A stretch of DNA of 38,478 nt from an uncultured bacterium (GTDB lineage Bacteria; UBP7; UBA6624), in the NCBI GenBank assembly GCA_964343345.1, contig CAYFJE010000002.1, positions 1-38,478 on the forward strand, in the 5' to 3' direction. The position numbers and the translations under genes were made by a program. The notes under the pieces are model-generated. The model saw nothing but the letters and a program-made list of their open reading frames with translations, was not told the origin of the DNA and did no database searches. Positions within the stretch are counted from its first letter, which is position 1. Each line of letters begins with the position of its first letter. Below are positions 3,287 to 34,740 of this stretch, in pieces.

Positions 3287-5611
3287 ATGGCAAGAATTGG
3301 TGTTTTTCTTAGCGAAGAGGGTAAAAGCCTACACCCATTAGACCTAAAGGCAATTTCTGACAAGCTCATTAAGAACGTTCAGGAAGTAAGTAACGTGTTT
3401 ATACACGAGGACCTTAATACCATAGAAGGCCTAGAGGCGATGGAGAGGCAGATAAAGGAACAAAACATCGGTTATGTTGTTATTGGTTGCGGATCTGTCG
3501 ACAAAAGAGAGGAGACCATTAGGACAACACTTAAAAAAGCAGGAATAAACGAATATCTTTTAGAGGTCGTGAATTTAAAAGAAATGGTTGCAAGCGTTCA
3601 TAACGATGAGCCTGAAAAAGCTAACGAGAAAGCGTTCCACCTAATACAAACAGCTGTAATGAAAGCCGAAAAAGGTAAACCGCTCAACGAAACACCAATG
3701 AGGGTAGAACAACAGGTTTTAGTTGTTGGCGGAGGTGTTGCAGGAATGTCCGCCTCTTTAAGAATTGCCGACGCCGGATACAGTGTTGTTTTGGTAGAAA
3801 AGGCACCTGCTCTTGGAGGGCGTGTTGCACTTTTGAAAAACCTTTGGCCAAAATTGGAAGAGGCGGAGGACTTGATGAGAAACCTTTCTATAAGGTGCCA
3901 CCAACACGAAAATATTGTTTTGTATGACTACTCCGAAGTTAAATCAGTTTCAGGAGTTAGAGGGGATTTTGATATTGAGATTTCAAAAAAACCCAGGTAT
4001 GTTGACAGCCAAAAAATAGATAATTTTGAAAAAATAACAGCAGAACTAACACAAGATTTTCCAAACAAGTACGGACCAAGCAATTCTTCAGCAAAAGTTT
4101 TATATCAACCATATCCAGGATGTGTTCCGCCGTTGTTTTTGATTGATCCAGAGCACATAAATCATCCAGAGGTAAAAAAATTAATCACACTTGTTCCAGA
4201 CGGAACTGTTGACACGTCAGAAAAAGAAAAAATTGTTCATGAAAAGGTCGGAGCAATCATTATGGCTTTCGGAGCACAGATGATGGATGTTTCAAAACTC
4301 ACAAACCTGACCTCAGCAAAAAACAAAAATGTTGTTACAGCCATGCATTTTGAATCAAACACACAGGCGGAAGAGGATTCCGAAGCCGTTCTCTGGGTTG
4401 TAGATGCTGGAAGCAATGATCCAAAAAGAGGGGTTCCTTATGCTTCAGAAGTTCCACTCATGACATCTGTCAAACAGGCTATCTCTGTTAAAAAATCTTC
4501 AAAAGACAAAACAAGAACAGTGGTAATCTATTCAGACAGACGATCAAGAACAAAAGGGTATGAAGAGTTTTTAAAAACTGCTGAACAAAAATACAAAATC
4601 GAGATGATTAGAGGGGCGGTTTCAAAAGTAACATCTCAAACGAATGGTCTTTCTGTAAGTTTTCACAATTTAATCCAAGGAGAAGAGCAGCAGATTTCAG
4701 CATCAAAAGTTGTTTTGGCTACAGAAATATCTCCATCTCCAGATACAAAAAATCTTGCAGAAATTATGGATATAGGTTGCGATAATTCAGGATTCCTCTC
4801 AGAGACCCACGCTTCCCTAGACCCTTGCTCAACGAGCAATTCCGGAGTTTTTGTTTGCGGTGACTGTGCATCTCCTGGAGATATTCGCGCTGCTGTTTTG
4901 ACAGCTGAGTCAGCGGTTGCTAAAGCTTTGGCAGTTCTTGGTAAAAAAACAGGAGAGCCATATAGGCTTAAGCAAAAAGATGATAAATTAGCTAGATTCG
5001 ATAATTCTGCACAAACCGTTTCCCCTGAAAGTTTTCAAAAAAACGAAGAAGGAGGAATGAGTTACACACGACTAAATACCGTTTTTGGAAAAACAGAAAG
5101 TGGAGCATCGGTTCCAGCATCTCCGACAAGAAATATCGAATTGCATGGGTGGGAGTTGGCGAAATCAATTGCTGAAATTGAAAACATATGGAGCAATCAA
5201 GTGGAAAATTCTTCTTGGGAGCCAAAAATAACAGGGTTTGCTTCTCAACATGGGGGCTATCCACTTTTGGAGACACTCGGAAGGGAGGAAATCTCATATT
5301 CCCCGTGCTATAGGTTTTTACGTATAAGATCAACAGCTCATCTAGACCCCCTTCTCGTCTTGAAAAGTTTTTTCAATGGAGCCGACGGAGTCTTTATTGT
5401 TGGGGGGCCCTTAGGAAGGGGAAAATTCCATACTGACAATTATCTTGCGAAAAGAAGGTTTAAAGCTCTTGAAGGAGTTTTGGATGCTGGAGGTATAGAG
5501 TCAGAAAGAGTGAAGATTCTTTTTATGGACTCTCACCAGGTTGACGAGGTAGCGCAACATTTGAAAGATTTTCACAACACACTTTCAGACTTGGGGCCAT
5601 TGGGTATTTGA
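3287..5611 (+). CDS. HdrA-like FAD flavoprotein fused to a C-terminal MvhD/FlpD-like domain, lacking the canonical Fe-S ligand cysteines
   Basis: GGAGGA RBS lies upstream. The Rossmann FAD motif VLVVGGGVAGMSASLRIADAGYSVVLVEKAPALGGR is at about nt 3728. The HdrA-like C-terminal FAD segment GVFVCGDCASPGDIRAAVLTAESAVAKA is present. Residues about 646-772 follow the MvhD pattern (GADGVFIVGG, ERVKILFMDS). Family-conserved Cys positions are substituted (see findings). Confidence 0.7.
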   Translation: MARIGVFLSEEGKSLHPLDLKAISDKLIKNVQEVSNVFIHEDLNTIEGLEAMERQIKEQNIGYVVIGCGSVDKREETIRTTLKKAGINEYLLEVVNLKEMVASVHNDEPEKANEKAFHLIQTAVMKAEKGKPLNETPMRVEQQVLVVGGGVAGMSASLRIADAGYSVVLVEKAPALGGRVALLKNLWPKLEEAEDLMRNLSIRCHQHENIVLYDYSEVKSVSGVRGDFDIEISKKPRYVDSQKIDNFEKITAELTQDFPNKYGPSNSSAKVLYQPYPGCVPPLFLIDPEHINHPEVKKLITLVPDGTVDTSEKEKIVHEKVGAIIMAFGAQMMDVSKLTNLTSAKNKNVVTAMHFESNTQAEEDSEAVLWVVDAGSNDPKRGVPYASEVPLMTSVKQAISVKKSSKDKTRTVVIYSDRRSRTKGYEEFLKTAEQKYKIEMIRGAVSKVTSQTNGLSVSFHNLIQGEEQQISASKVVLATEISPSPDTKNLAEIMDIGCDNSGFLSETHASLDPCSTSNSGVFVCGDCASPGDIRAAVLTAESAVAKALAVLGKKTGEPYRLKQKDDKLARFDNSAQTVSPESFQKNEEGGMSYTRLNTVFGKTESGASVPASPTRNIELHGWELAKSIAEIENIWSNQVENSSWEPKITGFASQHGGYPLLETLGREEISYSPCYRFLRIRSTAHLDPLLVLKSFFNGADGVFIVGGPLGRGKFHTDNYLAKRRFKALEGVLDAGGIESERVKILFMDSHQVDEVAQHLKDFHNTLSDLGPLGI

Positions 5612-21815: not shown

Positions 21816-23006
21816 TTAGTTTAACACCTTATTTCCTTCAACGAAAAGCATCTTAAGCCGGTTGTTTGACGAAAAAAAATCATCTAAGTCGTTTTTCCAT
21901 ACCCCGATATCAGCAATAGAGCCTTCTTCAATTTTCCCAGTTTTTTTCAGGCCAAGTGCTTTTGCTGGACTGGATGTTATTGCTTTCAATATTTCCTTGT
22001 TTGACATTTTCAAATCTCGTGAAGCCAGCTTCCCAACTTCTAACAGAGACGTGCAAAAAGAAGATCCCGCATTGAAGTCTGTTGCCAAAAATAACTCAAC
22101 ACCAGCATCAAGCAACTTTCTGGCATTTGGCTGTACCCCTGTGTCAAGTTCAATGTTGCAAATAGGCAATATTCCAACAGCGACTCCACTTTCAGCTAAT
22201 TTTTTTTCATCCCCTTCTTTGAGGTGTTCAGCATGATCGATTGAAACAGCTCCATATTTTAAAGCAATTTCAGCACCGCCCATTTCAGAGAATTGTCCAG
22301 CATGCAAAGTGATTTGATAATCTAGCGAACATGCATGAGAAAGGAGAAATTCAGTTTGTTTTTTAGAAAATGCCCCATCTTCCAAAAAAACATCAAAACG
22401 ACTTGCAAGGTTTTCTTTTTTTGCCATTTTTGCTGCTGTGACTATTTCCTCTAGATAAGTTTCTTCATCTTTGTTTTCAGGAAAAGCATGAGCCATCAAC
22501 AATGTTGTGACTACTCGAACTTTTTTCTCAGAAGCCCATTCCTTATAGATTCTTAAATGATGCAATTCTTCTTCAAGAGAAAGGCCGTAACCAGTTTTTA
22601 CTTCGATCGTTGTCGTCCCGGCAGATTGCATTTTTGAGAACCTTTCATCCATAAGGGACTTCAATTCTTCAGTCGTTGATTTTTTTGTTTCGGAAACGGT
22701 ATGTTTTATGCCTCCTCCAGCTTTCAAAATCTCAACATACGAAGCTCCTTTTTTTCTTAACTCCCCCTCAAAGCTTCGATCACCAGAATGAAGGAGGTGA
22801 GTGTGTGCATCAATAAAGCCAGGAGTAATAAAAGACCTCCCACAATCAATAATTTTTACTTGAGTCTTTTTTCTCAAAAAGGAATCAACCTCCTTTCCGT
22901 TTAGGAGACTTTTAACAACACCATTTTTTACACAAATGAAATTAGGGCCTTTTACAACTTTAAAACCATTCCACATATTTCCATTTGTTTTGATTAAATA
23001 ATCCAT
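21816..23006 (-). CDS. hutI: imidazolonepropionase
   Basis: ITPGFIDAHTHLLHSGDR, YVEILKAGGGIKHTV and the amidohydrolase metal-ligand pattern (HAGQ..., IDHAEH, ATDFN) are present. Confidence 0.9.
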   Translation of the reverse strand: MDYLIKTNGNMWNGFKVVKGPNFICVKNGVVKSLLNGKEVDSFLRKKTQVKIIDCGRSFITPGFIDAHTHLLHSGDRSFEGELRKKGASYVEILKAGGGIKHTVSETKKSTTEELKSLMDERFSKMQSAGTTTIEVKTGYGLSLEEELHHLRIYKEWASEKKVRVVTTLLMAHAFPENKDEETYLEEIVTAAKMAKKENLASRFDVFLEDGAFSKKQTEFLLSHACSLDYQITLHAGQFSEMGGAEIALKYGAVSIDHAEHLKEGDEKKLAESGVAVGILPICNIELDTGVQPNARKLLDAGVELFLATDFNAGSSFCTSLLEVGKLASRDLKMSNKEILKAITSSPAKALGLKKTGKIEEGSIADIGVWKNDLDDFFSSNNRLKMLFVEGNKVLN

Positions 23007-23050: not shown

Positions 23051-24553
23051 ATGAATCCAAAGGAAGCTTTCTCAAAATTAAAGGAAATATCATCCGATTC
23101 ACATGTAATCAGTGATGTGAGTGCGATTATAGGCTGGGACCAAGAAGTGAATATGCCCCCAAAAGGACTGGAGAACAGAGGGCGAATGATGTCTTGGCTT
23201 GCACAACAAAGGCATAAAAATGCCACACACCCAGCAATAGGAGAAGCACTCGAAGTCGCTCTATCTGGAGACTGGAGCAAAAAAGAGCAAGCTTGCTTGA
23301 GGGAATGGAAAAGAGGCTGGGACCTTGTTACAAAAATTCCGGCAGATCTGGTAAAAAGAGAGGCCTTGGCTTCTGTAAAAGGACATGAGTCATGGAAATC
23401 TGCAAGAGAAAAAGATGATTTTTCAATTTTTAGAAATGATTTAAGTGAATTAATAGAGCTTTCAAAAGAAAGATCAGAATGTCTTGGATATGAAACCGAA
23501 TCTTACGATGCGCTTCTCGACAGTTTTCAGGCAGGAATGAATGTCGAGGGGATTGACAAATTGTTTACAAGTTTAAAAAAGAAACTCACACCCCTCCTTG
23601 AAGAAATTTTAGATTGGCAGGGGGAAATCGAAAAAGACCCTATTGCAGGCCATTACCCAAAAGAGGAACAGAAAAAATTCTGTGAATGGGGAGCAAGGCA
23701 TATTGGCTTTGATTTCGAGGCAGGGAGGATAGACACTGCGGTTCATCCTTTTTGCTCGGGAGCTGGTCCAGGGGATGTTAGGTTAACAACAAGATACAAC
23801 CTTGAGAACCCTTTTGATTCATTTGGGGGATCTCTTCATGAAGCAGGACATGGACTTTATGAACAAGGTTTACCTTCAGGAAAAGAGGAGTACGGAACAC
23901 CGCTAAGTGATTCCGTTTCTTTGGGAATACATGAAAGCCAATCATTATTTTGGGAATCCATTGTTGGACAAAGCCCAGAATTTTGGGAATATGTTTTGCC
24001 TTTTTTCAAACAGCATTTCCCAGGAAGGGCCGATTCGATAACACATTCGCAAATTGTCCGTAGAACAAACAGGGTTTCAAGATCTCTAATTAGAGTTGAA
24101 GCTGACGAGGTAACCTATCCACTTCATGTTATTTTAAGATTTGAGATAGAAAGAGATATTTTCAAAGACAATCTTTCTGTAGACGATCTGCCAGATGCCT
24201 GGAATCACAAAATGAAAGAGCTTATCGGAGTGACCCCTCCAAATAACACTCTTGGGGTTTTGCAAGATGTACATTGGTCTATGGGTGGTTTTGGCTATTT
24301 TCCAACCTATGCCCTTGGAAGACTTTATTCGGCACAATTTGCAGAACAGCTTTCCAAAGACATGCCTCACTGGAGAGCTGATATGGCAAAGGGGAATTGT
24401 TCCCCTGCTTTAGAGTGGTCAAGAAAAAATATACATTCACAAGGTTCAATTTACAGAACCGAAGAACTAATAGAAAAGGTCACAGGAACCCCCCCAAGCG
24501 AAGAGCCGTTTTTAAATTATCTCAGGGCAAAATACAAAAAGATATTTACTTAA
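23051..24553 (+). CDS. M32 carboxypeptidase (carboxypeptidase Taq family)
   Basis: Family motif order is HPF (AVHPFCSG), then the zinc site HEAGHGLYEQG, then IHESQSLFWE and GYFPTYALG. Confidence 0.9.
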   Translation: MNPKEAFSKLKEISSDSHVISDVSAIIGWDQEVNMPPKGLENRGRMMSWLAQQRHKNATHPAIGEALEVALSGDWSKKEQACLREWKRGWDLVTKIPADLVKREALASVKGHESWKSAREKDDFSIFRNDLSELIELSKERSECLGYETESYDALLDSFQAGMNVEGIDKLFTSLKKKLTPLLEEILDWQGEIEKDPIAGHYPKEEQKKFCEWGARHIGFDFEAGRIDTAVHPFCSGAGPGDVRLTTRYNLENPFDSFGGSLHEAGHGLYEQGLPSGKEEYGTPLSDSVSLGIHESQSLFWESIVGQSPEFWEYVLPFFKQHFPGRADSITHSQIVRRTNRVSRSLIRVEADEVTYPLHVILRFEIERDIFKDNLSVDDLPDAWNHKMKELIGVTPPNNTLGVLQDVHWSMGGFGYFPTYALGRLYSAQFAEQLSKDMPHWRADMAKGNCSPALEWSRKNIHSQGSIYRTEELIEKVTGTPPSEEPFLNYLRAKYKKIFT

Positions 24554-26286
24554 TCACAAAGATCAATACCCATATTTTCAGCATTTTCCTTCGCATCTTC
24601 ATAGCCTGCATCAGCATGTCTCGCAATACCTATTCCAGGGTCGTTTGTCAGGACTCGTTCAAGCCTTTCTTTTTTCGAAGAGGTTCCATCAGCAACAACA
24701 ACCATCCCAGCATGCATTGACATCCCTGTTCCAACACCACCTCCACTATGAAATGACACCCAAGATGCTCCAGAGGCTGTATTCAATGCAAAATTCAAAA
24801 GCGGCCAATCAGCAACTGCATCTGAACCATCAAGCATAGATTCAGTTTCTCTGCTAGGGCTTGCAACAGACCCAGTATCAAGGTGGTCTCTACCTATAAC
24901 TATCGGAGCATCCAATGTCTTATTTTTGACCATTTCATTCATGGCCAATCCAGCTTTTGCTCTATCCCCATATTTGAGCCAACATATTCTTGTAGGCATA
25001 CCTTCAAAAGGCACTTTTGTTTGAGCTAGCCTAATCCATTTTTCCAAAAAAGGATCTTCTGGGAAAAGCTCCAACATCTTTTCATCAGTTTTTTTGATAT
25101 CATCTTTATTTCCTGAAACAGCAGCCCATCTGAATGGCCCCATTCCTTTAGAAAAAAGAGGTCTTATGTATGCTGGAAGAAAACCCGGATAAGCATATTC
25201 CTTATTTTTGGTTTTAATCTCCTTAAAACCAGCAAGATAAGCTTGATCTCTCAAGGCATTTCCATAATCAAAAGCAATAGAGCCTCTTTTTTGCATTCCC
25301 ATAATTGCACTTACATGTTTCATAATGGTTTCTTGTGCTCTCTTCGCATATTCTTTTGGATTTGACATCCTAAGTTGATTCAATTCTCCAATATTGCCTT
25401 CTGGCCAATAGGAAAGCAGATTGTGTGCCGAGGTTTGATCGGTCACTATGTCCGGAATCTCATCTTTTTCAAGAAGATTTGTTGCAACAGTTGCGATATT
25501 TCCAACAAGCCCAATCGAAAGACCTTTTCCATTCAAAACTGCCTCATTCTTCCATTTAAGAGCTTCTTCGAGATTGTCAGTGATTTTGTCGCAAAAACCC
25601 TGTTTGACCTTTTTTTCAATTCTTTCCCTAAGCACCTCCACACATAATATACATGCACCGGACATTGACCCCGCAAGTGGCTGGGCACCACTCATTCCCC
25701 CAACACCCGCTGTAAGTATCCACCTATTAGAAAGGTCGCTTGTTCCATATTCTTTTTCTGCAAGAGCAACAAATGTTTGATAAGTGCCTTGAAGTATTCC
25801 TTGTGTTCCAATGTATATCCAGGATCCAGCAGTCATTTGCCCATACATGAATAAACCTTTTTGATCTAGCTCATTGAAGCATTTTTCATTTGCCCAATTT
25901 GGGACAAGGTTGCTGTTTGCAATAATGACTCTCGGGGCTTCTTCATGCGTCTTTCCAACATAAACAGGTTTTCCGCTTTGGACACAAAGTGTTTCGTCGG
26001 GCTTGAGCCTTTTTAGAGTTTCAAGTATTCTCCAGTATTCTTTCCAGTTCCTTGCAGCTCTCCCGGATCCGCCATAAACAATTAACTTCTCCCAATCAAC
26101 AGCAACCCTAGGATCTAGATTATTTTGCAACATTCGATAGGCTGATTCAATATCCCAATTCTTACAAGTCAAAGATGTTCCCAAAGGAGCTTTTGGGGGT
26201 TTTTTTGGCCGCATGTCCATGAACATCGGCCTGCCGTAAAGAGATTTTTCGTTAAATTTTTCGGGTTGAAAGAATGTCATTCCCAA
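24550..26286 (-). CDS. hutU: urocanate hydratase
   Basis: LTCKNWDIESAYRMLQNNLDPRVA, VYGGSGRAARNW, QSGKPVYV, GQMTAGSWIYIGTQGILQGTYQTF and GRDHLDTGSVASPSRETE match HutU throughout. Confidence 0.95.
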   Translation of the reverse strand: MGMTFFQPEKFNEKSLYGRPMFMDMRPKKPPKAPLGTSLTCKNWDIESAYRMLQNNLDPRVAVDWEKLIVYGGSGRAARNWKEYWRILETLKRLKPDETLCVQSGKPVYVGKTHEEAPRVIIANSNLVPNWANEKCFNELDQKGLFMYGQMTAGSWIYIGTQGILQGTYQTFVALAEKEYGTSDLSNRWILTAGVGGMSGAQPLAGSMSGACILCVEVLRERIEKKVKQGFCDKITDNLEEALKWKNEAVLNGKGLSIGLVGNIATVATNLLEKDEIPDIVTDQTSAHNLLSYWPEGNIGELNQLRMSNPKEYAKRAQETIMKHVSAIMGMQKRGSIAFDYGNALRDQAYLAGFKEIKTKNKEYAYPGFLPAYIRPLFSKGMGPFRWAAVSGNKDDIKKTDEKMLELFPEDPFLEKWIRLAQTKVPFEGMPTRICWLKYGDRAKAGLAMNEMVKNKTLDAPIVIGRDHLDTGSVASPSRETESMLDGSDAVADWPLLNFALNTASGASWVSFHSGGGVGTGMSMHAGMVVVADGTSSKKERLERVLTNDPGIGIARHADAGYEDAKENAENMGIDLCD

Positions 26287-28036: not shown

Positions 28037-28858
28037 ATGATAGGTGCTTTCTTGCTTGCGTTTTTATTTAAGCCTTGTGTTGGGCATGAAGATTTTTGTG
28101 AAAAAAGATATAACGAAATTTCTTATTTGGTTACTCACAATGCAATGTCTTCAACATACGATCGTTGGTTTTTCCCAAATCAAGACCAAGGTCTTCTAGA
28201 GCAACTTGAAGATGGGGTTAGAGGTCTGTCTTGGGATATTCATTACGACGAAGGGAAAGTGTATCTTTGTCACGGATATTGTTGGCTCGGCAAGAGAGAA
28301 TTGGGAGAAGATCTAAAAATTTTAAAAAACTGGCTTGAAGAAAATCCAAGGGAAATTATTTCAATTTTTTTTGAAAGCTATGTTTTGCGAGAAGATGTTG
28401 AGAAAGTGTTTGAAGAAGTCGGCTTGATTCCTTACCTGCATCACCAGGAAAAAAATAAAGAATGGCCAAAAACTATAGAAATGATAACTAGCAACAAGAG
28501 AATCGTTGTTTTTACAAGCAAAGATGGAGGTGTTACCAATTGGTATCATGATGGATGGATGTATATGTGGGACACAGATTTTTCTTACAGAAAAACAGAA
28601 GACTTTACATGTTCAAGACATAGAGGTGAAAAGTCATCTTTAAACCTCTATAGCCTTAACCACTTCTTGACAAATCCTCTGGCTTCTAGAAAACTTGCAA
28701 AGAAAGCAAACCCAACCTTGTACGAGAGGGCAGTAAAATGCTGGTCAGAAGTTGGACAGAGGCCTAACTTTATTTTTGTCGACTTCTACTCCATTGAAGA
28801 AACCCTTGAAGCGGTCGAAAGGTTAAATTTCTACAGTCTTGATGCAACGAAGAGATAA
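28037..28858 (+). CDS. PI-PLC X-domain-like phosphodiesterase
   Basis: YLVTHNAMSS and GVRGLSWDIHYDEGKVYLCHG resemble PLC-like phosphodiesterase TIM-barrel proteins (PLCXD-like). It has a short hydrophobic N-terminus. Confidence 0.5.
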   Translation: MIGAFLLAFLFKPCVGHEDFCEKRYNEISYLVTHNAMSSTYDRWFFPNQDQGLLEQLEDGVRGLSWDIHYDEGKVYLCHGYCWLGKRELGEDLKILKNWLEENPREIISIFFESYVLREDVEKVFEEVGLIPYLHHQEKNKEWPKTIEMITSNKRIVVFTSKDGGVTNWYHDGWMYMWDTDFSYRKTEDFTCSRHRGEKSSLNLYSLNHFLTNPLASRKLAKKANPTLYERAVKCWSEVGQRPNFIFVDFYSIEETLEAVERLNFYSLDATKR

Positions 28859-28880
28859 CAGCAACTTACAATTCAGAAGA

Positions 28881-29810
28881 ATGAATACAAAAGACGAGTC
28901 TTCGATAATACAACTCAATGTCATAAGGCTTGGGAAGCTTGTTGGTTTTGCAATGAAAAAAGCCCTTAAGGGAAAACCTTTTAACACAGATGTTTTTTTG
29001 GCAAAAGCAAGAGCCAGAGAGTCCGAGATTAACACTTTAGAAATTGAAATTGAACAAGATATTCAAAAATTAATCAAATTCAAACTTGAAGAAAAAGAAT
29101 CGAGGCATTTGACAGCATTGTTGAAAATGAACAATGATTTAGAAAGAATTGGAGACTATGCAATGGCTATAGCCAAATATCTGGTTGAAATAGATATAAA
29201 AAATGTACCTGATATTGAAGCCAAATTCAAAAAACTTTCAAAAGCCTCCCTAGGAATGCTTGAAAGAGCTGTCCGCGCACTTGAGCTAGGTGATTTAAAT
29301 TTAGCAAAACAAGTCATCAAAGACGATGATCATGTCGATGCTCTTAATAAGTCAATTATCGAGAAACTGCTTTCTTCAAAGACAAGGGATTTAGTTTCAC
29401 TTGTTGCACTAATCAATCTCTGTAGACGACTTGAAAGAACAGCCGACCATGCAACGAATATAGCCGAGGACCTGGTTTTTTGGATAGAGGGAGATGTAAT
29501 TAGGCACCCTTTGAAAAAAAGATCTTTTTATTTTCACGATATCGAAATTTTCCCTAATAGCAGGGAAATCAAAATTGGAGAAAAAATCCATTTGTCAAAA
29601 AGCGAATGGGAGATTTTTATGAACCTAATTGAAAAATCCCCCAACGGCGTCTCAAGAGAGGAGTTAATGAAAAATGCACTTGGTTATGACTCTTCTGTCG
29701 AAACCCGAACTATTGACCAGCATGTTGTTGGTCTGCGTAAAAAACTTGGAGACAAAAAGGAGATGCTCAAATCCATTCCAGCTTTTGGCTACAAAATACT
29801 TAATTCGTAG
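28881..29810 (+). CDS. PhoU-domain / OmpR-PhoB-type winged-helix DNA-binding domain fusion protein (no receiver domain)
   Basis: Two PhoU repeats carry the signature motifs NDLERIGDYAMAIA and RRLERTADHATNIAEDLVFWIEG. From about nt 29526 there is a trans_reg_C-like domain: IHLSKSEWEIFMNLIEKSPNGVSREELMKNALGYDSSVETRTIDQHVVGLRKKLG...IPAFGYKI. The start is ambiguous among TTG 28839, ATG 28842 and ATG 28881. I prefer 28881 because it does not overlap the upstream gene. Confidence 0.8.
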   Translation: MNTKDESSIIQLNVIRLGKLVGFAMKKALKGKPFNTDVFLAKARARESEINTLEIEIEQDIQKLIKFKLEEKESRHLTALLKMNNDLERIGDYAMAIAKYLVEIDIKNVPDIEAKFKKLSKASLGMLERAVRALELGDLNLAKQVIKDDDHVDALNKSIIEKLLSSKTRDLVSLVALINLCRRLERTADHATNIAEDLVFWIEGDVIRHPLKKRSFYFHDIEIFPNSREIKIGEKIHLSKSEWEIFMNLIEKSPNGVSREELMKNALGYDSSVETRTIDQHVVGLRKKLGDKKEMLKSIPAFGYKILNS

Positions 29811-29823
29811 AATTAACACAAAA

Positions 29824-29855
29824 TTTTTACAACTTTTTTACAACTTTTTAAAAAA
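29824..29855 (+). promoter_or_regulatory. Pho-box-like direct repeats upstream of pstS
   Basis: TTTTTACAAC (29824-29833) is followed by TTTTTTACAAC (29834-29844). The TACAAC cores sit at 29828 and 29839, exactly 11 bp apart. A degenerate third unit TTTTTAAAAAA follows. A TATTTA -10 candidate is at 29869-29874, an AAAGGAGG RBS at 29895-29902, and the pstS ATG at 29916. Confidence 0.45.
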
Positions 29856-29915
29856 TCTTTAAAAACCCTATTTAGGATTTAAATTTAAACCCGAAAAGGA
29901 GGATTTTTTTTAAAA

Positions 29916-30803
29916 ATGAGATTTAAATTTATCAGTTTCTTCACATTGTTAGCCTTGCTAGCAGTAAGCTGTGCACGCCCTCAAGAATCAGGCGGAAACA
30001 CTGCTGAAAAAAATTCTTCTTCAGGGGGAGAGCAAAGCATTCAAGTTACAGGTTCTGACACCATGGTCAACCTGGGTCAAGCATGGGCAGAAGAGTATAC
30101 TAAAACAAACCCTAATGCCTATATTGCTGTTGGTGGTGGAGGCTCTGGGGTTGGAATCGCTGCTTTGATGAACGGCACTGCTGATCTTGCAAACTCTTCA
30201 AGGGCCATCAAAGACAAAGAGATCAACAAAGCAAACGAGCTTGGCTTCGGAATAGAGGAGTATATTGTTGGTTGGGACGGACTTGCTGTTGTTGTTCACC
30301 CTGATAACCCAGTTAACAATTTAAGTATTTTGCAAATAGCCGAAATATTTACTGCAAAAATTACAAACTGGAAAGAGGTTGGAGGAGAGGATTTGGAAAT
30401 CGTTCTTTTATCACGAGAAGTAAATAGCGGAACCCATGTTTATTTCAAGGAGAAGGTTGTAGGTTCTTTAGGAAAAGGAACAGAATTTAGCGAAGAGGCA
30501 CTATTGATGCCAAGTAGCCAAGCCCTTGCTGACGAAACAGCAAATAACACCGGAGCAATTGGATATTATGGTATGGGATACTTGTCGCCAGCACAAAAAC
30601 CTATCAATGTATCTGTTGATGGAGTTACTTTCGTTTCGCCAACTGTTGAGAATGTAATGAACAAATCCTACCCAATCGCAAGACCTTTACACATGTTCTC
30701 AAGAGACAATATTTCCCCAGCAGCAAAAGCTTATATCGATTGGATTATGAGTGATGGTGGGCAAGCTGTGGTTTCAGCACAGGATTTTGTTCCTCTAAGG
30801 TGA
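29916..30803 (+). CDS. pstS: phosphate ABC transporter substrate-binding lipoprotein
   Basis: Lipobox LLAVSC is present. The PBP-like_2 pattern is seen in VTGSDTMVNLGQAWAEEY, GGGGSGVGIAAL and REVNSGTH. The gene heads a pstCAB cluster. Confidence 0.9.
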   Translation: MRFKFISFFTLLALLAVSCARPQESGGNTAEKNSSSGGEQSIQVTGSDTMVNLGQAWAEEYTKTNPNAYIAVGGGGSGVGIAALMNGTADLANSSRAIKDKEINKANELGFGIEEYIVGWDGLAVVVHPDNPVNNLSILQIAEIFTAKITNWKEVGGEDLEIVLLSREVNSGTHVYFKEKVVGSLGKGTEFSEEALLMPSSQALADETANNTGAIGYYGMGYLSPAQKPINVSVDGVTFVSPTVENVMNKSYPIARPLHMFSRDNISPAAKAYIDWIMSDGGQAVVSAQDFVPLR

Positions 30804-30810
30804 TTAGTAT

Positions 30811-31719
30811 TTGAAAACCAAACCAAGCAAGAAAAAAGCAGAGGATTTCAAACAGCCTTTGTCTGAGAAAATAACAGAGGCATGCATTCGCTTCGCAGCT
30901 TGGCTTTGCATTTTTTTCATTGGTTGCATTCTTTACTTTTTGATCAAGGAAAGCGGAGGCGTTTTTTTTAAGGATATTTTCACGATAACAGGTAAATACT
31001 GGAGACCAATTAGTGAACCACCAGATTTTGGTGTTTGGGTTTTGCTTGCAGGAAGTTTAGCAGTAACGCTTACAGCATCAGTCATTGCTGTTCCTTTAGG
31101 CATTTGTGCGGCTATTTTCATAGGGGAGTTGTTGCCACAGAAATTCCGAGAACTTTTAAAAGTTATGGTTGAATTTTTAGCAGCAATACCAAGCGTTGTC
31201 ATCGGTTTTTTGGGGATGATTATTCTTGCCCCATACATCAAGGAAACTTTTGATTTAAAAACAGGATTAACAGCTTTTTCAGCAGCAATAATGCTTGCGT
31301 GGATGGCAATGCCAACAATAGTTAGCCTTACTGAAGATGCCCTTAGGAGTGTGCCAGATACCTTGAGAGACGGAGCCTTGGCTCTTGGTGCTACGAAATG
31401 GCAGATGATTACAAGAGTTCTTTTGCCAACAGCAAAACCAGGGATACTTGCCGCAGCAATGCTTGGTATAGGCAGGGTTATTGGTGAAACTATGGCAGTG
31501 TTGATGATTAGCGGTAATTCCGCAAGAATTCCAAAAGGCATCATGGAACCAGTCCGAACACTTACTGCGACAATTGCTGCAGAAATGGGAGAAACAGTCA
31601 AAGGGGATGAACATTATCAAGCTCTTTTCGGGCTCGGTGTTGTTTTGTTTATTATCACATTATTGATCAACACTGCAGCAGATAAATTTATCAATAAAAA
31701 ATACACGGAAGAATCATGA
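30811..31719 (+). CDS. pstC: phosphate ABC transporter permease PstC
   Basis: TTG start. Polytopic membrane protein with an EAA-type loop (LTEDALRSVPDTLRDGALALGATKWQMITRVLLP). Confidence 0.9.
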   Translation: MKTKPSKKKAEDFKQPLSEKITEACIRFAAWLCIFFIGCILYFLIKESGGVFFKDIFTITGKYWRPISEPPDFGVWVLLAGSLAVTLTASVIAVPLGICAAIFIGELLPQKFRELLKVMVEFLAAIPSVVIGFLGMIILAPYIKETFDLKTGLTAFSAAIMLAWMAMPTIVSLTEDALRSVPDTLRDGALALGATKWQMITRVLLPTAKPGILAAAMLGIGRVIGETMAVLMISGNSARIPKGIMEPVRTLTATIAAEMGETVKGDEHYQALFGLGVVLFIITLLINTAADKFINKKYTEES

Positions 31720-32576
31720 GTTTCAAAAAACAAAATCCAATCAGCCAGCAAAAAAGAGCCACATTTGGTTTAGGGCTTATTACAGCTATTGTGGTTATTC
31801 CGGTGCTGTTGATACTGGGTGTTGTTTTTGTTAAAGGGATTTCGGTTATAGATTGGAATTTCCTAACAACAGAACCGACAAATGGCTTAAGGGATGGCGG
31901 TGTTTTTCCTGCCATAATTGGGACATTGATTCTTGTTGTAGGTGCTGTTGTTTGGAGTGTTCCCTTTGGCGTAGCAACAGCGATTTATCTAGTTGAGTAT
32001 TCACCAAGAAGTCGTGTAGCCAACTGGATAAGATTGGCAATTTTAAATTTAGCAGGTGTCCCAAGTGTTGTTTATGGACTTTTCGGGCTCGGGGTGTTTG
32101 TCATAGCTTTGAAGTTTGGCGCAAGTATTCTTGCAGGCACTTTGACCTTGGCATTAATGAATTTACCCGTAATAGTGACATCAACTGCAGAAGCATTAAA
32201 AGCTGTTCCAGACAGATTTAGAGAAGCAAGTTTGGCATTAGGTGCTAGCAAATGGCAAACAACAAGACACGTTGTTCTCCCCAACTCAATACAAGGCATC
32301 TTGACTGGAATAATATTGGAAATCAGTCGTGCTGGAGGGGAAACTGCACCAATTTTATTTACTGTTGCAGCATTTTATTTGCCAAGATTGCCGCAAAGTA
32401 TTTTTGATCAGGTGATGGCACTTCCTATGCATCTTTTTGCTATTTCCACACAGGTTCCTAATATAGGTTTGGATGTGAGGTATGCCGTTGCCCTAACTCT
32501 TTTATTTTTGGTTTTAGGTGTAAATGCAATTGCGATTTTCATGAGAGCAAAAATAAGGAAAAACAGAATATGGTAA
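31716..32576 (+). CDS. pstA: phosphate ABC transporter permease PstA
   Basis: 4-nt overlap with pstC. EAA loop STAEALKAVPDRFREASLALGASKWQTTRHVVLP is present. Confidence 0.9.
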   Translation: MSFKKQNPISQQKRATFGLGLITAIVVIPVLLILGVVFVKGISVIDWNFLTTEPTNGLRDGGVFPAIIGTLILVVGAVVWSVPFGVATAIYLVEYSPRSRVANWIRLAILNLAGVPSVVYGLFGLGVFVIALKFGASILAGTLTLALMNLPVIVTSTAEALKAVPDRFREASLALGASKWQTTRHVVLPNSIQGILTGIILEISRAGGETAPILFTVAAFYLPRLPQSIFDQVMALPMHLFAISTQVPNIGLDVRYAVALTLLFLVLGVNAIAIFMRAKIRKNRIW

Positions 32577-33319
32577 AAGAGATAACTATCGAAAAACTTT
32601 CAGTTTCATACGGAAGAAAACAGGCCATAGGAGATCTTTCTTTGTCGATTGAAAAAAATGAAATATTGGGAATAATTGGTCCCACCACTTCTGGGAAGAC
32701 AACTTTGCTTACGGTTTTAAACAGAATGATTGACACAATATCGTCAGCCACTATTTCTGGCAGTGTGTTTATGGGTGATATCGATATTCTAAAAACACGA
32801 AACATCCATAGTTTGAGGCGGTCTGTTGGGATGATATTTGCTCTTCCGGTTGCTTTACCAATGAGCATCAGGGAAAACGTTGAATATGGCCCAAAAATGG
32901 CAGGAGAGCCAAAAAACGAACTCAACAAGCGAGTCCAAGAAAGCCTTGTTCAGGCAGGATTGTGGGACGAGGTTAGTGACAGACTAGATTCACCAGCCTT
33001 AAAGCTTTCAGGAGGGCAGCAGCAAAGACTCTGTATAGCAAGAGCCTTGGCGTTGAAGCCCAGAGTTCTATTGCTGGACGAACCTTGCTCTGGGCTTGAT
33101 CCAATATCAACAGCCAGAATAGAAGATACATTGGGTGAATTGAAAAAAGAAATGACTATCATTTTGGTCACCAACAACCCCCACCAAGCCGCTCGTGTTG
33201 CGGATCGAACAGCTTTTATGTTGAAGGGGGAGCTTGTCGAACTCTCTGAAACAAACAAATTGTTTACAAATCCTTCAGACAAAAGAACAAAAGAGTATAT
33301 AGAGGGGAAGTTTGGTTAA
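32570..33319 (+). CDS. pstB: PstB-like ABC ATPase, degenerate copy (Q-loop Gln to Ala, switch His to Asn; signature intact)
   Basis: Walker A is GPTTSGKTT. The Q-loop position reads VGMIFALPVALPMSI (GCT at 32840-32842). The signature is LSGGQQQRLCIARA and Walker B is LLLDEPCSGLDP. The H-loop reads LVTNNPHQAARV (AAC at 33173-33175). The C-terminal PstB tail is KRTKEYIEGKFG. Confidence 0.85.
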   Translation: MVKEITIEKLSVSYGRKQAIGDLSLSIEKNEILGIIGPTTSGKTTLLTVLNRMIDTISSATISGSVFMGDIDILKTRNIHSLRRSVGMIFALPVALPMSIRENVEYGPKMAGEPKNELNKRVQESLVQAGLWDEVSDRLDSPALKLSGGQQQRLCIARALALKPRVLLLDEPCSGLDPISTARIEDTLGELKKEMTIILVTNNPHQAARVADRTAFMLKGELVELSETNKLFTNPSDKRTKEYIEGKFG

Positions 33320-34083
33320 TGACAAAAATATTAATAAAGTCTGAAAAATTTAATTTATGGTATGGCGACTTCCAGGCTTTAATAGATGTAAATCTTGATA
33401 TACCAGAAAATCAAGTTACTGCTGTTGTAGGTCCTTCTGGGTGTGGAAAAAGCACTTTTGTACGATGTATCAATAGGCTAAATGACCAAATTAACACCGT
33501 TACGACCAAAGGCTCTATTTCTATTGATGGAATAGATATTTACCAATATACAACTGACGAGGTTGTCGGCCTCAGGAGATCTGTAGGCATGGTTTTTCAA
33601 AGGCCTAACCCTTTTCCTCTTTCTGTTTTCGAAAATGTTGCTTTTGGCTTGAAAACGAATCCAATGGTCCCTGACGATTTGGCTATAAAAAAAGAAGTTA
33701 ACAAGGCATTAAAAGCTGTAGGCTTGTTCGAAGATTTAGAAGGGGATTTTTCAAAATTGGGGACCAGTCTTTCATTGGAGCAACAGCAAAGATTATGTAT
33801 TGCAAGATGCCTTCCAACAAAACCAAAAATATTACTTATGGACGAACCCTGTTCCGCGTTGGACCCAAGTGACACAGATAAAGTGGAAGAGCTCATAAGA
33901 GAATTAAGGAGAGACTATACTGTTGTAATAGTGACACATAATTTACAACAAGCTGGAAGAATTTCCGATCAGGCTGTACTGTTTCATTTAGGAAAAATCG
34001 TTGAAGCAGCTCCAACAAAGGATTTTTTTCAAAATCCACAAGAAAAAAGAACAAGAGACTTTATTACAGGTCGGTACGGATAG
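33319..34083 (+). CDS. pstB: PstB ABC ATPase, catalytic copy with degenerate signature motif (LSLEQ)
   Basis: Canonical Walker A GPSGCGKST, Q-loop VGMVFQRPNPFP, Walker B LLMDEPCSALDP and H-loop VIVTHNLQQAGR are present. The signature reads LSLEQQQRLCIARC (33769-33783) instead of LSGGQ. The start overlaps the upstream stop by 1 nt. Confidence 0.9.
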   Translation: MTKILIKSEKFNLWYGDFQALIDVNLDIPENQVTAVVGPSGCGKSTFVRCINRLNDQINTVTTKGSISIDGIDIYQYTTDEVVGLRRSVGMVFQRPNPFPLSVFENVAFGLKTNPMVPDDLAIKKEVNKALKAVGLFEDLEGDFSKLGTSLSLEQQQRLCIARCLPTKPKILLMDEPCSALDPSDTDKVEELIRELRRDYTVVIVTHNLQQAGRISDQAVLFHLGKIVEAAPTKDFFQNPQEKRTRDFITGRYG

Positions 34084-34092
34084 GAGTAAATA

Positions 34093-34740
34093 ATGACAAG
34101 AAGATTGACTAAATTAATCGACAAAATTAAAGGAAAAACCTTAGCGATGGCACAAGATGTTTGCGCTTCAATGGACGATGCAATGAATGCGATACTGAAT
34201 TCCACCGATAAAAAATACCAAGAAATGAAAACAAGAGAAAACGGAATTGATGCTTTGGAAGTTGAAATAGAAGAATCAATACTTGGGACAATTGCTGTTC
34301 ATCAGCCCGTCGCGGATGATTTGAGAATTCTTGCAGCAATGCTGAAGATAACAAATGACCTAGAGAGGATTGGCGATTATGCAATAAAAATTGCTCAAAG
34401 AGGCAAGGATATTGATGCAAATTTGATAAAAAGTATCAAGGCTCCACTGTCACAACTAGGAGACTCTTCAATTCAGATGATTAAAGATGCAGTTGAAGCT
34501 TTAGATAAAGGAGACGCGGATCTTGCTCAAAAGGTTAGAGATGCTGATGACAGGGTGGACGATTTAAACAAATCTTTAATCAAGGAGTTAGCAAAGATAA
34601 ATGACGATGATTTTGAGTCACTGGTTGCTCTTGTTTCAATATCTAGACGATTTGAAAGAGCTGCAGATCATGCTACGAATATTGCGGAAGATGTTTTGTT
34701 TTGGCTTGAAGGGAGGATCTTCAGACACGGAGAAACATAG
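34093..34740 (+). CDS. phoU: phosphate signalling accessory protein PhoU
   Basis: 215 aa with two PhoU repeats, carrying NDLERIGDYAIKIA and RRFERAADHATNIAEDVLFWLEG. It sits immediately after pstB. Confidence 0.9.
   Translation: MTRRLTKLIDKIKGKTLAMAQDVCASMDDAMNAILNSTDKKYQEMKTRENGIDALEVEIEESILGTIAVHQPVADDLRILAAMLKITNDLERIGDYAIKIAQRGKDIDANLIKSIKAPLSQLGDSSIQMIKDAVEALDKGDADLAQKVRDADDRVDDLNKSLIKELAKINDDDFESLVALVSISRRFERAADHATNIAEDVLFWLEGRIFRHGET

Follow-up and report, generated by a model that had tools for sequence, protein, structure and literature searches.

Can a phosphate importer be driven by two different ATPase subunits, neither of which carries a complete set of catalytic motifs? This question is raised by a phosphate-uptake locus in a 38,478-nucleotide stretch of DNA from an uncultured bacterium (UBP7; UBA6624; GenBank contig CAYFJE010000002.1, positions 1 to 38,478 of the forward strand; hereafter the window), which encodes two adjacent paralogs of PstB, the ATP-binding cassette (ABC) protein of the Pst transporter. 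An earlier note on this DNA had claimed that the two proteins, PstB-1 and PstB-2, depart from the consensus in complementary ways and would form an asymmetric heterodimer. We find that the complementary split is conserved in pairs of adjacent pstB genes from many phyla. Judging from sequence comparisons we propose, with a probability of roughly three in four, that PstB-1 and PstB-2 form an obligate heterodimer on PstC-PstA, with one hydrolytic ATP site and one re-specified, hydrolysis-impaired site.

The pst operon and its two PstB paralogs

The phosphate-uptake locus comprises seven genes on the + strand (28839-34740), delineated from the list of open reading frames (ORFs) and from NCBIfam and Pfam matches:

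28839-29810, + strand: PhoU domains fused to an OmpR/PhoB-type winged-helix DNA-binding domain (Pfam PF01895 and PF00486; NCBIfam PhoU and PhoB effector-domain models)
29916-30803, + strand: pstS, phosphate-binding protein (TIGR02136, 240 bits against a cut-off of 206.6)
30811-31719, + strand: pstC, permease (TIGR02138, 281 bits against 196)
31716-32576, + strand: pstA, permease (TIGR00974, 285 bits against 193)
32570-33319, + strand: pstB-1, 'type-1' subunit, 249 residues (ORF, TIGR00972, alignment, AlphaFold and Foldseek)
33319-34083, + strand: pstB-2, 'type-2' subunit, 254 residues (ORF, TIGR00972, alignment)
34093-34740, + strand: phoU, ordinary stand-alone copy, last in the operon (TIGR02135, 164.8 bits against 130; Pfam PhoU)

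The pstS, pstC, pstA and phoU products all score above the curated NCBIfam cut-offs and their genes flank the two pstB genes, both of which lie where the earlier note had placed them, on a single strand; the window thus holds a complete pstS-pstC-pstA-pstB1-pstB2-phoU phosphate uptake operon. The pstA gene overlaps pstB-1 by 7 nucleotides and the stop codon of pstB-1 overlaps the start of pstB-2 by one (TAATG), which indicates that these three genes are translationally coupled. The PstB family, TIGR00972, is the top family for both proteins (residues 5-249 of PstB-1 and 6-254 of PstB-2, over profile positions 2-248), and both miss its equivalog cut-off of 343.2 bits, with scores of 316.0 and 330.7 respectively. 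They are 39% identical to each other, and each is about 45-50% identical to canonical PstB.

The motif columns were assigned from alignments of each protein with the E. coli PstB structure (PDB 9k3x chain C), which PstB-2 matches with E = 1.5e-72 in a sequence comparison. Re-translation of the codons and this alignment gave the following motif states:

32678-32704, + strand: PstB-1 Walker A, GPTTSGKTT
32840-32842, + strand: PstB-1 Q-loop position, Ala91 instead of Gln (E. coli Gln98)
33005-33019, + strand: PstB-1 signature, LSGGQ, consensus
33068-33082, + strand: PstB-1 Walker B, LLLDE, catalytic Glu kept
33173-33175, + strand: PstB-1 switch (H-loop) position, Asn202 instead of His (E. coli His210)
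33430-33456, + strand: PstB-2 Walker A, GPSGCGKST, consensus
33598-33600, + strand: PstB-2 Q-loop, Gln94
33769-33783, + strand: PstB-2 signature, LSLEQ instead of LSGGQ (Leu153-Glu154, E. coli Gly156-Gly157)
33832-33846, + strand: PstB-2 Walker B, LLMDE
33937-33939, + strand: PstB-2 switch, His207

These states bear out the description in the earlier note of a PstB-1 altered in its Walker A, Q-loop and switch elements and a PstB-2 altered in its signature alone, and the alignment places the substitutions on catalytic columns. The Walker A of PstB-1 matches the general pattern GxxxxGK[ST] and is without the Ser-Gly typical of ABC proteins at positions 3-4. Of the full consensus set of Q-loop Gln, LSGGQ and switch His, PstB-1 is thus without the Gln and the His, and PstB-2 without the Gly-Gly. 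An AlphaFold model of PstB-1 has a predicted local distance difference test score (pLDDT) of 93.9 and a predicted template-modelling score (pTM) of 0.90, and its best structural matches are both E. coli PstB chains (template-modelling score 0.94-0.96; root-mean-square deviation 1.3 Å for 9k3x chain C). The confidence of this model and its closeness to E. coli PstB show that PstB-1 is an intact PstB-like domain rather than a remnant.

For a canonical baseline, one genome per species was scanned for the peptide QQQ[RK]LCIAR, meant to catch all PstB classes, which recovered at least 120 loci. Of the 120 pstB loci listed 118 are canonical, some of them cut by locus ends, and in the complete canonical genes neither the Q-loop Gln nor the switch His is ever replaced; their signatures are LSGGQ (117), MSGGQ (5) and LSAGQ (1). 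All three deviations in the window pair fall on columns (Q-loop, signature and switch) that are otherwise invariant among some 120 canonical PstB proteins, and are thus more than chance. Canonical tandem and triple loci also occur in this sample (L066, L273), and all their copies have Gln, His and LSGGQ. The asymmetric kind accounts for one of the 120 loci listed, roughly 1%, a rough figure, and the peptide may differ in sensitivity between PstB classes.

A widespread pair of PstB subfamilies

We define type-1 subunits by replacement of the Q-loop Gln with Pro or Ala and of the switch His with Asn, with LSGGQ kept, and type-2 subunits by a consensus catalytic side together with a signature of the form LxLEQ. 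Two genome scans, one of them on the type-2 signature (at least 120 matches), and one context look-up yielded at least 202 loci, of which at least 156, from many phyla, contain a complete type-1/type-2 pair. In all 156 complete pairs listed the type-1 gene is immediately followed, on the same strand, by the type-2 gene (median stop-to-stop distance 794 nucleotides), and the complementary motif split is kept in every one. The usual gene order is pstS-pstC-pstA-type-1-type-2. Hence the tandem arrangement remarked upon in one genome represents a widespread conserved subfamily pair.

Among the loci listed, type-2 genes found alone are all cut by the locus end, with the exception of L192 (1242-2669, + strand), in which a type-2 pstB with the signature LTLEQ follows an unrelated oxidoreductase-like gene and is itself followed by phoU. 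It is the only type-2 gene listed that is without an adjacent type-1 gene despite enough upstream DNA, and its partner may be encoded elsewhere in the genome.

Searches of a collection of 5.8 billion proteins gave a similar picture. The best 120 homologs of PstB-1 all have the Q-loop Ala, the switch Asn and LSGGQ or FSGGQ, and most of the best 120 homologs of PstB-2 have an LSLEQ-like signature with Glu at position 4, LSGGQ being present in only four. A few PstB-2 homologs show LSGEQ or LTGEQ, in which Glu replaces the second Gly alone; these forms may be intermediates towards LSLEQ. The feature that marks the type-2 class universally is Glu at signature position 4.

The named sources of the protein homologs include Omnitrophota, Chlamydiota, Margulisbacteria and Planctomycetaceae. 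In the genome records the pair occurs in Planctomycetota, Verrucomicrobiota (Akkermansia, Chthoniobacter, Pedosphaera, Prosthecobacter), Poribacteria, Acidobacteriota, Gemmatimonadota, Myxococcota, Bacteriovoracaceae, Desulfobacterota, Binatia, Nitrospirota, Ignavibacteria, Rhodothermales, Fibrobacter, Elusimicrobiota, Firestonebacteria, Magnetococcales, and Gamma- and Betaproteobacteria (Chromatiaceae, Sedimenticolaceae, Lysobacterales, Accumulibacter). The nearest relatives of the window locus are marine metagenome-assembled genomes (L001-L003). Type-1 proteins fall into two groups, which are alike paired with LxLE-type partners: group A, to which the window protein belongs, with Gln replaced by Ala, VTNN and DEPCSGLD, and the larger group P, with Gln replaced by Pro, VTNLVQQ and LDEFSIA[IV]D. 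Two loci in records titled as Bifidobacterium or Bifidobacteriaceae metagenome-assembled genomes (L032, L036) have Verrucomicrobia-like pair motifs (GPAQSGKT, VTNLVQQ), and their assignment is probably a binning error in those assemblies. A tblastn search of plasmids returned no match above 51% identity, which is the range seen for canonical PstB.

In four loci (L116, L147, L140, L170) a canonical and an asymmetric Pst system adjoin, the canonical PstC and PstA being larger in L116 and L147. The presence of both systems side by side implies that the asymmetric form is a distinct paralogous transporter. In Poribacteria-type loci an extra pstC- or pstA-like gene comes after the type-1/type-2 pair, and phoU is last, preceded by a third, more divergent PstB-like gene whose product has Arg, Gly or Pro at the Q-loop position, the switch Asn, the signature LSIGQ or LSRGQ and the D-loop GELD. 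This third gene was located as follows:

L086, 998-1798, - strand: third PstB-like gene
L105, 5500-6357, + strand: third PstB-like gene
L137, 1724-2512, + strand: third PstB-like gene
L156, 3351-4214, + strand: third PstB-like gene
L180, 3647-4498, - strand: third PstB-like gene
L184, 5378-6199, - strand: third PstB-like gene

Conservation and anatomy of the asymmetry

Fixed changes specific to each class were taken from the columns that are at least 85% conserved in canonical PstB and are given in E. coli numbering. In type-1 they are T39 to F/L, A40 to G, S45 to A, S50 to T, Q98 to P/A and H210 to N, to which group P adds P102 to G and P180 to F; Gly46 is never kept in type-1, its replacement varying between N, Q and T. 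In type-2 they are G156 to L, G157 to E, R161 to K and residue 167 to L. The remaining columns of this conservation level are retained in both classes. The type-1 changes all lie on the Walker A/Q-loop/switch side, and the type-2 changes all in the signature helix.

Among the sequences listed, the type-1 Q-loop position is occupied by Pro (149), Ala (17) or Asp (1) and never by Gln, the type-1 switch position is Asn in all 167 that are readable there, and the type-2 signature has Leu-Glu in 181 of 181. The Walker A of type-1 follows the class-wide pattern GP[AST]x[SA]GK[ST], and LSGGQQQR is present in every type-1 sequence of the two main classes. Type-1 proteins further retain the A-loop Tyr/Phe and the Walker A Lys at about 100% and the Walker B Asp-Glu at 100%; the loss of this Glu, which is frequent though not universal in degenerate subunits, is absent. 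Mean identity within both classes is about 60-65% across phyla. The invariance of the replacement residues implies selection on a new form rather than decay, and the retention of the A-loop Tyr/Phe, Walker A Lys and Walker B Asp-Glu suggests that the odd site probably still binds nucleotide.

A predicted heterodimer with two unlike ATP sites

ABC ATPases dimerize head-to-tail, such that each ATP site combines the Walker, Q-loop and switch elements of one subunit with the signature of the other (PMC3971661, PMC7756269). A PstB-1 homodimer would be without the Gln and His in both sites and a PstB-2 homodimer would have Leu-Glu in both; consequently, only the heterodimer gives one complete site. 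Mapped onto such a dimer, all non-consensus residues gather in one composite site, formed by the type-1 Walker/Q/H side and the type-2 signature, and the other composite site, in which LSGGQ of type-1 meets the catalytic side of type-2, is wholly consensus. The arrangement of one consensus and one doubly non-consensus site that the earlier note had derived from a single pair is strongly supported by the same split being kept in every listed pair.

We accordingly infer a working model from the disposition of the residues: the motif states, their complementarity and conservation and the linkage of the genes are observed, and heterodimer formation, loss of hydrolysis, nucleotide occupancy and stoichiometry are predictions of the model. 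The consensus site would consist of the PstB-2 Walker A, Walker B, Q-loop Gln and switch His together with the PstB-1 LSGGQ, and would hydrolyse ATP and drive transport. The non-consensus site would bring together the variant P-loop of PstB-1, its Q-loop position without Gln and its Asn in place of the switch His, with the PstB-2 LSLEQ, which is predicted to face the PstB-1 Walker A and to put a Glu in the place from which the second signature Gly would ordinarily contact the gamma-phosphate. Such a site would be unable to hydrolyse ATP efficiently; with nucleotide probably still bound through the Tyr, Lys-Thr and Asp-Glu of PstB-1, it could serve as a structural or allosteric hinge, and the predicted expenditure would be one ATP per transport cycle. 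In CFTR the G551E/D substitutions, at the same signature position, block ATP-driven closure of the site by gamma-phosphate repulsion (PMC4178940), and in yeast Pdr5 the degenerate site has LNVEQ and making the site consensus abolishes function (PMC7756269). In view of the retained Walker B Glu, Walker A Lys and A-loop Tyr, the site that the earlier note called non-catalytic is more fittingly described as 'hydrolysis-impaired, probably nucleotide-binding'.

Invariant replacement residues and a Glu at the position of CFTR G551E together mean that the non-consensus site could prefer ADP, close without a gamma-phosphate, or read energy or inorganic phosphate (Pi) status. The reading of the site as a re-specified ligand or state sensor rather than just a dead ATP site, one that might signal to PhoU or, in the window's lineage, to the PhoU-winged-helix fusion, is possible though in our judgement unlikely; if true, it would couple transporter state to Pho signalling via a dedicated non-catalytic nucleotide site.

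Evolution, opposing evidence and rival explanations

Several observations weigh against the obligate, one-ATP heterodimer. The PstB-1 Walker B Glu is kept, unlike in many degenerate sites, and slow hydrolysis at the second site is therefore conceivable; the Glu of LSLEQ might also stop the site from closing on ATP at all, leaving it open or with a preference for ADP instead of glued together by ATP. The two canonical paralogs of E. faecalis show that tandem pstB genes do not always specify an obligate heterodimer, since PstB1 can there be substituted by an excess of PstB2 (PMC12096839). The evolutionary data call for similar care. In distance-based (neighbour-joining) trees from all columns, bootstrap support is 86-91% for a type-1 clade, within which group P is nested at 100%, and 72-82% for a type-2 clade; upon removal of the five motif blocks it falls to 1% and 32-37% respectively, although near-pure clusters persist. 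Monophyly of the two classes is thus supported only with the motif columns included, and we consider a single ancient origin likely. Partner divergences are strongly correlated in a mirror-tree comparison (r = 0.91 against a permutation maximum of 0.12), which fits co-inheritance but is confounded by phylogeny, as any two linked genes would give the same result. Likewise, Gln at Walker A position 4 of type-1 goes with Gln at signature position 2 of type-2 in 55 of 56 cases, an association that we rejected as evidence of contact since it comes mostly from one lineage and is phylogeny-confounded.

These points have to be set against what the other explanations would require. Were both ATP sites active and the substitutions tolerated variants, the pair would be a diverged heterodimer spending two ATP per cycle. 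The Walker A Lys, Walker B Asp-Glu and A-loop Tyr of PstB-1 are compatible with this, and a residue other than Gly at Walker A position 4 occurs in other active P-loop ATPases, such as RecA. Yet three independent catalytic elements are altered in one site with the other untouched, the altered columns are those that are invariant in the canonical proteins, and mutations of the switch His and signature Gly abolish activity in other ABC proteins (PMC4178940 for the Glu), so that we regard two active sites as very improbable. That one of the genes is instead a decaying duplicate and the complementarity a coincidence might be read from the sub-threshold TIGR00972 scores of both proteins (316 and 330.7 against 343.2), but this is effectively refuted by the conservation data, given two intact ORFs, the pLDDT of 93.9 for PstB-1, and classes that hold about 60-65% mean identity across phyla with invariant replacement residues in hundreds of homolog clusters.

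A less remote, though still improbable, explanation is that a PstB-2 homodimer alone powers the transporter and PstB-1 is an accessory or regulatory ATP-binding protein outside the motor, such as one that partners PhoU or the fusion protein. The catalytic side of PstB-2 is complete, and in E. faecalis the downstream PstB2 is needed for Pi import while the upstream PstB1 is accessory and replaceable by excess PstB2 (PMC12096839); the E. faecalis paralogs, being both canonical, are however a different case. With PstB-2 paired to itself, both sites would contain LSLEQ, and thereby a Glu where ATP-driven closure is blocked in CFTR G551E/D (PMC4178940), and the invariant LSGGQQQR of type-1 would be left without a reason for its conservation if PstB-1 lay outside the dimer. 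The adjacency of the genes in 156 of 156 listed pairs and their strict complementarity fit one shared dimer better.

Comparison with known systems

The heterodimer that we favour differs from the Pst importer of E. coli in its asymmetry. E. coli PstSCAB contains a PstB homodimer (PDB 9k3x, 9k3s; PMC12976172) of the same fold, encoded in the same place after pstS-pstC-pstA and before phoU, and by homology the window system is likewise a type I importer in which PstC and PstA carry one nucleotide-binding domain each. E. coli has two identical subunits and two consensus sites, whereas the window has two paralogs, 39% identical, with complementary non-consensus residues. The view of Pst importers in the earlier note, as normally built on PstB homodimers, is correct for E. 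coli (PMC12976172) and needs qualification for Firmicutes, in which tandem pstB genes, both canonical, are known (PMC12096839, PMC11466899): E. faecalis has PstB1/PstB2 (PMC12096839), and B. subtilis PstBA/PstBB have been modelled as a heterodimer (PMC11466899). The Firmicutes systems share with the window two adjacent pstB genes in one pst operon and a downstream copy that is apparently the main catalytic one, but their copies are canonical, whereas the window pair is complementary and neither subunit has the full motif set. According to the E. faecalis authors, the relative contributions of tandem pstB paralogs had not been compared in any earlier study (PMC12096839).

Asymmetry between one ATP site that is consensus and another that is degenerate is treated in reviews as a hallmark of ABC exporters (PMC3971661, PMC7756269), the heterodimeric examples with one degenerate site including TM287/288, TmrAB, BmrCD, PatAB, TAP1/2 and CFTR (PMC7756269, PMC3971661). 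The Pst pair shares their logic in that the non-consensus residues are gathered in one composite site, and the degenerate signature of Pdr5, LNVEQ, closely resembles the LSLEQ/LQLEQ of type-2 (PMC7756269). The exporters, however, have unrelated membrane domains and have usually lost the Walker B Glu, while the Pst pair belongs to a binding-protein-dependent type I importer, keeps this Glu and has non-consensus residues that are invariant across phyla. Among importers, RbsA and NupO have fused nucleotide-binding domains and two ATP sites, one of them degenerate and predicted inactive (PMC11466899). In these proteins, which belong to another transporter class, the domains are fused and the second Walker A Lys is lost; the Pst subunits are separate polypeptides and both Lys are kept. 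We found no description of complementary non-consensus PstB pairs in the literature, a search that covered open-access full text and in which absence is not proof; the asymmetric form of the Pst importer is thus apparently undescribed.

If the heterodimer proposal is true, a substantial set of environmental and gut bacteria import Pi at the probable cost of a single ATP per cycle, and the conserved second nucleotide site could provide an input to Pho regulation. The reason for which cells retain a non-hydrolytic ABC site is still debated, and a type I importer of such a design, conserved across many phyla, would offer a simple bacterial system for the question. For annotation, both subunits are at present named plain 'PstB' and fall below the equivalog cut-off, and two dedicated subfamily models would be justified.

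The PhoU fusion protein and the remainder of the window

The first gene of the locus, directly upstream of pstS (28839-29810, + strand), encodes two PhoU domains and a C-terminal winged helix-turn-helix whose best matches are PhoB models. Among the best 120 matches in the 5.8-billion-protein search this architecture is confined to the window protein and two proteins closely related to it, at 80% and 73% identity, and among about 200 pst loci the fusion occurs only in L001-L003. As read from its domain architecture, the protein may be a one-component phosphate regulator, with PhoU replacing the receiver domain of PhoB, and is a candidate regulator of the operon.

About 70 nucleotides upstream of the pstS start there is an exact direct repeat with an 11-bp period, TTACAAC-TTTT-TTACAAC (29827-29844, + strand), which resembles a Pho box. 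We rejected this identification since the three closest relatives have a single copy of the TTACAAC unit, and Pho-box-like matches with at most two mismatches arose in 35 of 100 shuffles; the repeat appears to be a local duplication of 11 bp and not a conserved operator. A promoter and terminator scan gave background-level hits only, and an Rfam scan of the window gave no RNA family matches, with no rRNA or tRNA markers.

Other genes of the window include:

929-2305: dihydrolipoyl dehydrogenase
3287-5611: HdrA-like flavoprotein
21816-23006, - strand: hutI, histidine utilisation

An ORF of 578 residues (24550-26286, - strand), likewise assigned to histidine utilisation, is a putative urocanate hydratase gene.

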